DNA of 49,469 nt from a virus (taxonomy: Duplodnaviria; Heunggongvirae; Uroviricota; Caudoviricetes), in the IMG/VR virus record IMGVR_UViG_2698536620_000015; one strand, given 5' to 3'. Each line of letters opens with the position of its first letter. Position 1 is the first letter of the stretch. A program made the position numbers. Shown in pieces: positions 1 to 3,000 of this stretch.

Positions 1-3000
1 ATGTTTTGCGAAGAAAAAGTAGCTCAAATGGCTGCATACCTACTTCTTAAGCGAGGTGGGCGCATGGCATATCTGAAATTGATGAAGCTGCTCTATCTGT
101 CTAACCGCAAGTCGATTTTGAAGCATGGCAGGATGATCGGCGAAGATAGCCTTTACTCTATGAAATTTGGTCCAGTCATGTCGAATACGCTGAACTTGAT
201 TCGTGGTAAGGCTGAAGGTATTGGTGACTACTGGTACAACCTGATAGAGACGAACGGGCATGATGTGTTGTTGCGTTCAGATCCGAGGGAAATGGATGCA
301 GACGAGGTCTTTGATGAGTTGAGCCGTGCAGATATCCGGATTTTAGATGAAATCTATTCTCTGTATGGGCATATGAACCGATTTGATCTCGCAAACATGA
401 CGCATTTAGAAAGCGTTTGTCCAGAGTGGCACAATCCTGGCAATTCTCGTAAGCCTATAGACCTGAAAGAAATGCTGATCAGTGAGGGTAAAAGCGAGGA
501 TGAGGCTAATCGTATAATTGGCAAAATGGAAGAATCTCAGAAACTTAAGGAATTTTCTTTGCAATTATCATGACGGATTATCAGCCATACAGGAAAGGAA
601 CTGTGCTTGCCCCAACTGGGCCATGCAATCATCTTCATGTGATTTGTAATGATCCTGTTTATTACCCCGTTAACGATTGTTATTGTGTTTTAGTTGTTAA
701 TATTTCTAGTATCAAGGATGGTGTCCCCCACGATCCGTCTTGCGTCTTGAATTCTGGTGATCATCGCTTTATCAAGCATCCAAGTTATGTTGTTTACGCT
801 GAAGCTATAATTTGGCGAGTGGATAACATGGTTAGAAAGCAGCGATCGGGTGAGATTTCCGTTCATGATGATATGCCAGAAGCTACATTCAATAGAATTC
901 TGGACGGTTTTGATATATCTGATGAAGTTACGCCAAAGAACCTTAAATTTAAAAATAAATATTGCGTATCATCTATTGATGATGAGTAAACAACAGGAAT
1001 TGTTTCGGTATAGCTTCTGGAGTTTTCTATGGAAGATCAAAAAGCAACCAAGCCACAGGTTAAGTTCGACACAATGAAAGCATTCGCAGGTATGGGTGCT
1101 GCTGTTGAAGTTCTGATGAAGGCTGCTCCTAATGCGTTCACTCACGCTACTGTCTCTGGTAAAGAGCAGCAGGGTAAGCTTCGTCGTCGCAAAGCAGCAT
1201 GATCATAGCTGGTGCTTTTTGAAAACCCGCCTTTAGGCGGGTTTTTTCTTTAGTGATGTTCTTTGCCCTTCTGTTTGCCTGTTCTGACCTGTTCCCACTC
1301 GATACGTCCTTCTTCTCGTCTTTTGTCTATGTATTCCGCAAGATCCTGAATATTGATGCAACGTTTTGCTTTTTGTGATGTACCGATGCGATATGTAGGT
1401 ACAGGCAACTTACAAGCGTTTGCTTTTGCTTCTGCTGTGGCTGGACTCATACCAAAGTATTTTTGACTAACTGCTGAGAGTTCAATGTTTGGGGTATTGA
1501 ATTCAGCCATCAGTAAAAACAAGGTATTCATATCATTTCTCCATCATAACCGGCTGCACCCGGTGAGTTACTTATTCATTTCAATAATATTATTTTCTAT
1601 CATTGATTTATTTAAAACCAAAGAAGGAGCAAGATGGTTGTCTATTTTAAACAATGCATAACTTTTAAACTGTTGGTGATATCCGTAACTAATAAGGATG
1701 CTAGAAAAATCTCTTAATTCATCTTCTTTTAAAAAATTAAAATGAAATGGGTTGTCACCATTTATGAACAATGAAACATCTATTATGCAGTATTTCTCTC
1801 CGTTGTCATTTGCATAGAAAAAAATATAAGACATTCTGTTTGTTAAGACAATGCCATTAAATTTTCTTATGTCTGTAGCTATTTTGTTTTCCATGTTTGG
1901 TGCTACATATTTATTTTCAGAAATACATTTAATTTCATCTCCAGATGTCGTGATTATATAAAAATGAAACTTATCAGAAATATCTAACTTAACTACGCCA
2001 TCATTATTGTAAAGGCTGCTAAATTTTGGTGGTTCAACTTTTAAAGAATCATAGTTCTTTAAAAGAAGAGGGGAGTCAAATTTAATAACTTGTAGTATCC
2101 CTTTACCTTCAACCTCCATATTGATTGAAGATATAGCAATTGCATTATCTCTTTTATTATTCAGGATTATGGTTGATATATGCATGTCATATATTCTACT
2201 TGCATTTGCTGAATACGACACTGTCACCTTTTTTGATATTTTTTGCACGCCAAAATATATAGTGAAGGCAGCGGCAAGAATAGATAAGAATTTAATGTCA
2301 AATAAGGACCATAGCCACATTAGTTGCTCAATTGCTTCAGAGTTAATCATTTGCTTTACCATTATCGCTGTAATACAACACATGTGTGTATATATACGCA
2401 ATGCAATTATTTTGCAAGTGCTTCATTTACTATCAATAGCTACGTCACGTTATTGTTTAATGGTTCTTTATAGGGGCGGCAATAGTTAAAATTATCGCTT
2501 CCGTAAATGCCCCCGCAGGGGCATTTGCAGTAATGAAATCAGGCGGTGAAAGTACCAATAAAGGTTTCTACTTTGCTGTCTTTGAATTTCTCAACAAGCA
2601 GATCACGAAATTCGTTAGCCATTTCTTCCTGTACCGCTTCCAGCTGAATAATGCGCAGAACCAGTACAGGACGATCGCCAGTGATAATGCTGAGGCGTAA
2701 TTTAAACGGACGTTCTTTCAGACCTTCAAACGGAACGCATTTAAATTCAAATGCCACTGGCATAATGTCTTTGGTCTTCGCTTCGACAGACTCCATCAGG
2801 GAGCGTTTGCCGCTGAAGTCATTATCTTCAAAATCAGCGGTCTGGTTCGCTTCAATTGTGATTTTACGGATCGCCGCAGCCGCTTTGGTTGCCTGAATGG
2901 CGTCACCATTAGCATCAAAGCCCACAAGGTAGTCGGCCCAGTCTTCAATCCATTCTGCCAGTGACTTCTGGGAGTTACGCTCGCCATTAACAGACAACAG

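Follow-up and report, generated by a model that had tools for sequence, protein, structure and literature searches.

What is encoded by the two overlapping genes with which a 49,469-nucleotide caudoviricete sequence (IMG/VR record IMGVR_UViG_2698536620_000015; the whole stretch is called the window below) begins, and is the second of them a new toxin? An earlier note, made from the sequence alone, had recognized a DUF4065/Panacea gene in the first open reading frame (ORF1), could not place the 139-aa product of the second (ORF2) in any family, and proposed the two as a candidate toxin-antitoxin (TA) or abortive-infection module, with the partner as a candidate new toxin or defense effector. 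We find that the TA part of this proposal stands, with a Panacea domain in ORF1, an invariable pairing of the two genes and a toxin family for ORF2, while the novelty of the toxin does not, ORF2 being a homologue of a known toxin. Positions 1-989 very probably hold a type II PanA-PanT pair, carried as mobile prophage cargo, in which coupled genes encode a MazF/Kid-like toxin, PanT, and an antitoxin, PanA, that neutralizes it by binding. Our own analysis supplied the domain assignment, the conserved gene order, the homology to a validated pair and the fold prediction; toxicity, neutralization, complex formation and translation inhibition come from the literature on a Pseudomonas moraviensis pair; and we infer the RNase chemistry as well as the benefit to the prophage, through stabilization and/or exclusion of other phages.

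ORF1 Encodes a Panacea Protein and Overlaps ORF2

The assignment of ORF1 withstood a hidden Markov model search against Pfam: residues 27-137 of its product match positions 1-109 of the 113-position profile PF13274 (SocA_Panacea, formerly DUF4065) with 67.9 bits and E = 1.8e-18, the gathering cut-off being 25.7, and the KLMKLLY and KFGPV motifs are both present. An identical protein in RefSeq, WP_000458583.1, is named "Panacea domain-containing protein." The product is not a SocA equivalog, scoring 13.5 bits on the NCBIfam model NF047745, whose cut-off is 190. Its identity to the PanA that Pseudomonas phage Sirocco encodes is 46%, and the N termini read MFCEEKVAQ in ORF1 and VIFSEQKVAQ in Sirocco; the N terminus of P. 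moraviensis PanA was restored as MIFSEQKVAQ by Kurata et al. (PMC8832971). Given that the Sirocco protein starts like P. moraviensis PanA, ORF1 and the P. moraviensis antitoxin are, as far as sequence can tell, orthologous. The PanA proteins that accompany ORF2 relatives carry a motif, TH..(C)PEW.DP..SS.PI, just past the Pfam domain and end in a variable helical tail; residues Q9, K26, K29, L30, Y32, R36, G57, S61, W78, L107, A110, G123, T134, H135, E142, W143, P146 and I153 are invariant in 24 of these partners. Sequence searches with PanA found no relative of solved structure.

The stop codon of ORF1 (TGA, 571-573) overlaps the start codon of ORF2 (ATG, 570-572) in a 4-nt ATGA, as the earlier note had read. 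Its other remarks on the layout also hold, with one amendment. The GC content is 41.3% in 1-989 compared with 51.1% in the whole window, and the pair lies on the strand opposite to the leftward genes that follow it, namely xis, a gene for 277 aa and a DUF2303 gene. The strong hairpin terminator is real and is placed by a terminator scan at 1221-1246, where an 11-bp stem with six G-C pairs precedes a T run; its predicted RNA fold has a free energy of -19.3 kcal/mol (z = -3.2), and none of 200 shuffled sequences was equally stable. This terminator stands head-on to the end of xis and forms the 3′ boundary of a rightward unit of panA, panT and a small third frame, ORF3. The amendment concerns ORF3, which had been taken as a 42-aa frame from about position 1075; this was too short, the frame at 1029-1202 encoding 57 aa with a full-length match to phrog_2741.

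Homology Places ORF2 in a Described Panacea-Associated Toxin Family

The difficulty in placing ORF2 was borne out by the profile databases, though not by homologue searches. Pfam, NCBIfam and PADLOC gave no match, and the only profile found was phrog_19071, of unassigned function. A first homologue search led to 62 clusters whose proteins, from Enterobacterales, Vibrio and Shewanella, are labeled "hypothetical," and a profile built from these reached 2,703 representative clusters (50% identity) at E ≤ 1e-3, and 929 at E ≤ 1e-10, in Proteobacteria and their phages. Not one of 112 sampled members matches any Pfam family. The family of ORF2 is sizeable, and there is no Pfam, NCBIfam or PADLOC model for it. 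Within it, ORF2 is full length and lacks none of the residues whose conservation in the family is 90% or higher, including the invariant ones.

Kurata et al. (PNAS 2022, PMC8832971) described 88 clusters of toxins paired with Panacea antitoxins. In the part of their Dataset S1 that we covered, cluster T6 has the antitoxin gene first, an overlap that is usually -4, the commonest value, or -1, and members in Proteus, Pluralibacter, Pantoea septica LMG 5345, "Yersiniaceae bacterium 2016Iso4," Photorhabdus, Halomonas and many alpha- and betaproteobacteria (PMC8832971). The validated T6 representative is P. moraviensis PanT (WP_083201923.1), which is toxic in Escherichia coli and neutralized by its PanA. 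The two count as a confirmed TA pair in that study, in which a pull-down recovered the toxin bound to its PanA; the toxin specifically blocks 35S-Met incorporation, that is, inhibits translation, and HHpred predicted it to be an RNase of the EndoA/PemK/MazF family (PMC8832971).

ORF2 joins this cluster by three independent ways. First, two of the genomes that encode an ORF2 homologue directly after a PanA gene correspond to T6 entries in the covered part of Dataset S1, with the same overlap values: -4 in P. septica LMG 5345 (locus L008) and -1 in strain 2016-Iso4 (L007). Second, among the relatives of the homologue in phage Sirocco we found the P. moraviensis protein SDU72800.1 (P0298), which begins with MPGNIL and finishes with IRQNNF. 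These are the termini encoded by the published cloning primers Pse.mor_PanT_Fw and Pse.mor_PanT_Rev (Dataset S3, PMC8832971), and because both match, we take SDU72800.1 to be the P. moraviensis PanT that was tested. Third, ORF2 aligns directly with SDU72800.1, without gaps, at 43% identity over 120 aa (E = 6e-34). By homology, therefore, ORF2 is a member of the described T6 PanT family rather than a new toxin, and this copy would be toxic as its homologue is. The entries of Dataset S1 that we covered do not include the window's own accessions. We also considered cluster T1, annotated "mRNase," which contains non-toxic members from E. coli MOD1 and Salmonella phage Emek, and rejected it: the T1 overlap is -20 or -62 and not -4, and ORF2 has no match in Emek.

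The membership also bears on the start of the gene. RefSeq, through its annotation pipeline PGAP, starts the toxin gene at a GTG at 603, giving a "hypothetical" protein of 128 aa (WP_014640052.1; locus L038, 4103-4489), while phage records start it at the ATG at 570. Residues 1-11 of the longer form are conserved across the family, with G10 invariant and M1, P6, K9 and T11 at least 90% conserved, so the true product of panT is likely to be the 139-aa form with the ATGA overlap, and the GTG start is likely to be a miscall. This allows a protein that RefSeq and phage records call hypothetical to be named as a T6, MazF-fold PanT toxin and its start to be corrected from GTG 603 to ATG 570; about 4% of finished E. 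coli genomes encode it, as do temperate phages of five genera. No new kind of system is revealed; the PanAT family was described before.

The Two Genes Are Found Together in Distant Proteobacteria and in Temperate Phages

We then compared gene neighborhoods, as the earlier note had suggested. An ORF2 relative is encoded at 32 genome loci, of which the 30 with readable upstream DNA make up the counted set. In all 30, the gene that directly precedes the toxin gene on the same strand encodes a PanA homologue. The loci come from alpha-, beta- and gammaproteobacteria, including Enterobacterales, Vibrionales, Methylococcales, Burkholderiales, Rhizobiales and Sphingomonadales, and the spacing between the two genes ranges from about -4 to +62 nt, a 4-nt overlap being the commonest arrangement. 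ORF2 homologues are also carried by temperate phages of Escherichia, Yersinia, Klebsiella, Pseudomonas (a P2-like phage) and Vibrio. PanA lies upstream of the toxin in each of the five phage records examined, among them Pseudomonas phage Sirocco, Yersinia phage YeP1 and Klebsiella phage ST13-OXA48phi12.5. The association is reciprocal in that each ORF2 relative with enough flanking DNA, in genome contigs and phage records alike, adjoins PanA.

Two of the homologous loci have features of their own. In the methanotrophic symbiont of Bathymodiolus platifrons (L034, 3420-4330), an intact PanA homologue is followed by a short, weak toxin remnant (E = 8e-5), which may represent a decayed toxin beside a retained antitoxin. 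In Vibrio phage 10N.239.311.H11_PE001, a homologue with 53% identity to ORF2 lies at the very start (566-949) of a 14.5-kb element, a size at which it could be satellite-like.

PanT Is Predicted to Adopt a MazF/Kid-Like Fold

An AlphaFold2 model of ORF2, built on the family alignment, reached a mean predicted local distance difference test score (pLDDT) of 90.1 and a predicted template modeling score of 0.84. It has the SH3-like barrel fold of the CcdB/MazF superfamily, with two additional C-terminal helices relative to MazF/Kid. The best 50 Foldseek matches in the Protein Data Bank (PDB) are all MazF chains, and MazF and Kid outrank CcdB.

Together with the homology described above, this model leads us to propose the following mechanism. 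panA and panT would be translationally coupled through the ATGA overlap and belong to a rightward transcript that starts from a leader outside the window, continues into ORF3 and ends at the hairpin at 1221-1246. PanT would be a small toxin of MazF/Kid-like fold, most likely an endoribonuclease, that arrests translation, and PanA would neutralize it by direct binding. There is no sign of an RNA antitoxin, as an Rfam scan of positions 1-2600 gave nothing above threshold, the only matches being sub-threshold ones of the kind expected of terminator-like hairpins.

Several observations weigh against this reading. At the sequence level, neither ORF2 nor any of the 112 family members matches PF02452 (PemK_toxin); a profile search of PDB sequences with the ORF2 family returned no MazF, only chance matches to hemocyanin; and hhalign comparison of the family with MazF alignments of 5 and 25 sequences gave E values of 0.06-0.18 and probabilities below 1%. 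(A protein search for a diverse MazF profile gave only near-identical NdoA/EndoA sequences and added little.) The conserved polar residues of the family are H21, invariant in the 112 diverse members, D55, C58, H65, S72 and Y76; the Arg29/Thr52 pair of E. coli MazF is not evidently conserved, and the family has no conserved Arg there. Since these residues are unlike those of MazF, the chemistry or the target of PanT could differ. On the antitoxin side, a single-sequence model of PanA was unusable (pLDDT 42) and so yielded no neutralization interface. As to function, toxicity, neutralization and complex formation are known from the 43%-identical P. moraviensis pair, and several predicted PanTs, including that of another E. 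coli pair, of cluster T1, were non-toxic in E. coli (Table S1, PMC8832971). Finally, the promoter and any operator lie outside the window. In the homologous leader, about 127 bp before panA, we found a single promoter-like sequence (TTGACC-17-TAAACT), where 1.4 would be expected by chance; for that reason we discarded this site as functional evidence.

The residues that set the family apart from MazF are a useful point that remains. A collinear but non-significant hhalign alignment puts H21 beside H28/R29 of MazF and S47 opposite T52, which we take as a lead only. A zinc site formed by H21, H23, C26, C58 and H65 was also considered and rejected, because Pseudomonas members have Met at position 26 and the conservation of H23 does not extend to the broad family.

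PanAT Resembles the P. moraviensis Pair More Than Other TA Systems

The P. moraviensis PanA-PanT pair (T6; PMC8832971) contains the same two families in the same order, has a stop/start overlap (-1 there, -4 here) and a toxin of similar size (132 aa there, 139 aa here) for which a MazF-like fold is likewise predicted. It differs in that its locus is scored "NotPhage" in the part of the published data that we covered, whereas the E. coli pair sits in a lambdoid prophage, and in that the toxin of the window has Cys26 in place of the Met found in Pseudomonas and slightly longer N and C termini.

The classical MazEF, Kid-Kis and PemIK systems (PF02452) are more remote: ORF2 has no detectable sequence similarity to their toxins, it has H21, D55, C58 and H65 as opposed to Arg29/Thr52 of MazF, along with its two extra C-terminal helices, and its antitoxin is a Panacea-domain protein instead of a MazE/Kis AbrB or ribbon-helix-helix protein. 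Type VI SocAB of Caulobacter crescentus, whose antitoxin is the founding member of the DUF4065 antitoxin family, shares the Pfam domain with ORF1, but the score of ORF1 falls far below the SocA equivalog cut-off, its partner is not SocB, and the related PanA of P. moraviensis binds its toxin stably and is not a protease adaptor (PMC8832971). PanAT of Burkholderia prophage phi52237 and the T1 pairs of Salmonella phage Emek and E. coli MOD1 also combine a Panacea antitoxin with an adjacent small toxin in temperate-phage genomes, although their toxins are nucleotide-cyclase-like and T1 "mRNase," respectively, and tblastn found no match to ORF2 in Emek.

The Pair Occupies a Variable Slot Next to the Prophage Attachment Site

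The window opens exactly on the ATG of panA, and for this reason the panA promoter and leader are not part of it. A copy of 100% identity in E. coli AR_0085 (L038) supplies the missing context. There, dusA is the integration site of the prophage and the module occupies its left end, next to attL; beside it is a truncated 5′ fragment of the host dusA (L038, 3143-3500), which has the same orientation as panA and precedes it by about 250 bp. The excised phages Lys8385Vzw and SKA5 show leftward int, then the attP region with dusA 5′ sequence, and then rightward panA-panT-ORF3 facing leftward xis. No terminator is predicted between the dusA fragment and panA in the homologous leader, and in lysogens transcripts from the host dusA promoter could extend into panAT.

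Homology with phage mEp460 stops just past the att-arm sequence and resumes at position 1016, 27 nt after the panT stop codon. The slot equivalent to 1-1015 is occupied, both in mEp460 (L039, 2284-2817) and in a prophage of E. coli O157:H7 SS52 (L040, 2284-2817), by an unrelated 177-aa gene (WP_000956557.1) that has no Pfam match. Because related prophages hold this unrelated gene in place of the pair, panAT is, on this comparison, a swappable or mobile cargo cassette of 1.2 kb in a variable att-proximal slot between the dusA att site and xis. The complete module is present in 205 of 5,426 finished E. coli genomes (about 4%), where its sequence is 95-100% conserved; about 360 further finished genomes contain the ORF3-xis junction only, without panAT.

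ORF3 itself is Ala/Lys-rich and matches phrog_2741 over its full length (1-57/57, E = 8e-36). It adjoins the PrtN-type excisionase gene in about 565 E. coli genomes, with or without panAT, shares its terminator with the convergent xis, and accompanies xis without panAT in phage mEp460 and the O157:H7 prophage as well; by tblastn it is confined to dusA-integrating lambdoid loci and is not found in the distant panAT loci. We considered ORF3 as a third TA component and rejected this, given its retention with xis in the approximately 360 genomes that lack panAT and its absence from distant panAT loci. It is part of the phage backbone and is probably co-transcribed with panAT.

Possible Roles of the Pair in the Lysogen

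The position of the cassette raises the question of what it does for the prophage. One possibility, compatible with the TA mechanism but tentative, is that its primary role is anti-phage defense of the lysogen by abortive infection or superinfection exclusion, the Panacea domain sensing infection and releasing the MazF-like toxin. An att-proximal cargo slot that holds different genes in related prophages, a cassette transcribed independently of the lytic operons, and the recurrence of the same pair in the unrelated temperate phages of the five genera named above are all consistent with it, and Ernits et al. (2023) favor a sensory role for Panacea and note the overlap of TA and defense systems. 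Yet the cargo-slot position is circumstantial, PADLOC-DB v2 has no match to ORF1, ORF2 or ORF3 at E values up to 1, and the papers that we consulted contain no phage-challenge experiment on a PanA:MazF-like pair, the BASEL screens of PMC10440598 having dealt with other systems. As the native E. coli counterpart of a system whose validation comes only from Pseudomonas, this copy would be a convenient test case, both for what Panacea senses and for whether PanAT pairs defend lysogens.

We consider it rather unlikely that the pair is instead an addiction or stabilization module, in which loss or excision of the prophage would leave stable PanT without labile PanA and thereby penalize cured cells. 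Such behavior is classical for type II TA systems on mobile elements (discussed in PMC8832971), and stabilization is as conventional a reading as defense. The module sits at the extreme end of the prophage, beside the truncated dusA 5′ fragment and attL. The same backbone junction nevertheless occurs without it in about 360 E. coli genomes, indicating that it is dispensable for maintenance.

A composite proposal goes further and is unlikely as a whole: T6 PanT would form a distinct branch of the MazF/CcdB fold, with an active site of H21, D55, C58 and H65 instead of the Arg/Thr pair of MazF and possibly another RNA target or chemistry, and the cassette would at the same time be an abortive-infection module of dusA-integrating lambdoid prophages, in which Panacea senses incoming phage.

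It is improbable that ORF2 is not toxic in E. coli, whether as a decayed or host-mismatched copy or as a regulatory protein. Seven predicted PanTs and the C. crescentus SocB control were "not toxic" in E. coli, including those of the E. coli MOD1 and Salmonella phage pairs (Table S1, PMC8832971), and RefSeq calls ORF2 hypothetical, with a different start codon. Those phage and MOD1 examples, however, belong to cluster T1, and ORF2 has no match in Emek. Furthermore, both ORFs of the window are full length and ORF2 keeps all the strongly conserved family residues, the sequence is 95-100% conserved across 205 genomes, and the tested member of the same family is toxic in E. coli (PMC8832971).

A CcdB-like action of ORF2 as a gyrase poison, or a type VI mode like that of SocAB, with PanA as a ClpXP adaptor that degrades the toxin, is very improbable, since MazF and Kid chains outrank CcdB in the fold search, the homologue inhibits translation and not replication and forms a stable complex with PanA, ORF1 reaches 13.5 bits on the SocA equivalog against a cut-off of 190, and SocB is a separate cluster, T10 (PMC8832971).

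Neighboring Features of the Window

The features at the left end of the window are collected in Table 1.

Table 1. Positions of the panA-panT cassette and adjacent features in the window
Feature	Position	Strand	Basis or remark
panA, 190-aa Panacea (DUF4065) antitoxin	1-573	+	Pfam PF13274; domain at residues 27-137, then conserved motif and C-terminal helical tail
panT, 139-aa toxin, Kurata T6 family, predicted MazF/Kid-like fold	570-989	+	Homology and model
ATGA stop/start overlap	570-573	+	Read in the sequence
ORF3, 57 aa, phrog_2741	1029-1202	+	Full-length phrog_2741 match
Intrinsic terminator (11-bp stem, 4-nt loop, T run)	1221-1252 (hairpin 1221-1246)	+	Terminator scan, RNA fold
xis, PrtN-type excisionase	1250-1531	-	
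277-aa ORF, very AT-rich	1568-2401	-	
DUF2303/YfdQ gene	2539-3363	-	

The 277-aa ORF between xis and the DUF2303 gene has a GC content of 29.3%, compared with 51.1% for the window, and one predicted N-terminal transmembrane helix. Its only match is phrog_14996 (function unassigned, E = 3e-178), with none in Pfam, NCBIfam or PADLOC. It is missing at the equivalent position in the closest phages, where the megablast match stops at 1563, and tblastn found no match to it in the phage collection. By these features, the ORF resembles a moron that was acquired separately, and it could be an exclusion or defense gene.

At its other end, the window carries on the rightward strand a gene for a Lom/Ail outer-membrane protein (44952-45431), followed by a region (45527-49469) with a 1,042-aa tail-fiber gene and a tail-fiber assembly gene. 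The last position is the stop codon of the final gene. With the start at the panA ATG and the end at this stop codon, the window appears to have been cut from the prophage at gene boundaries, leaving out int and attR.

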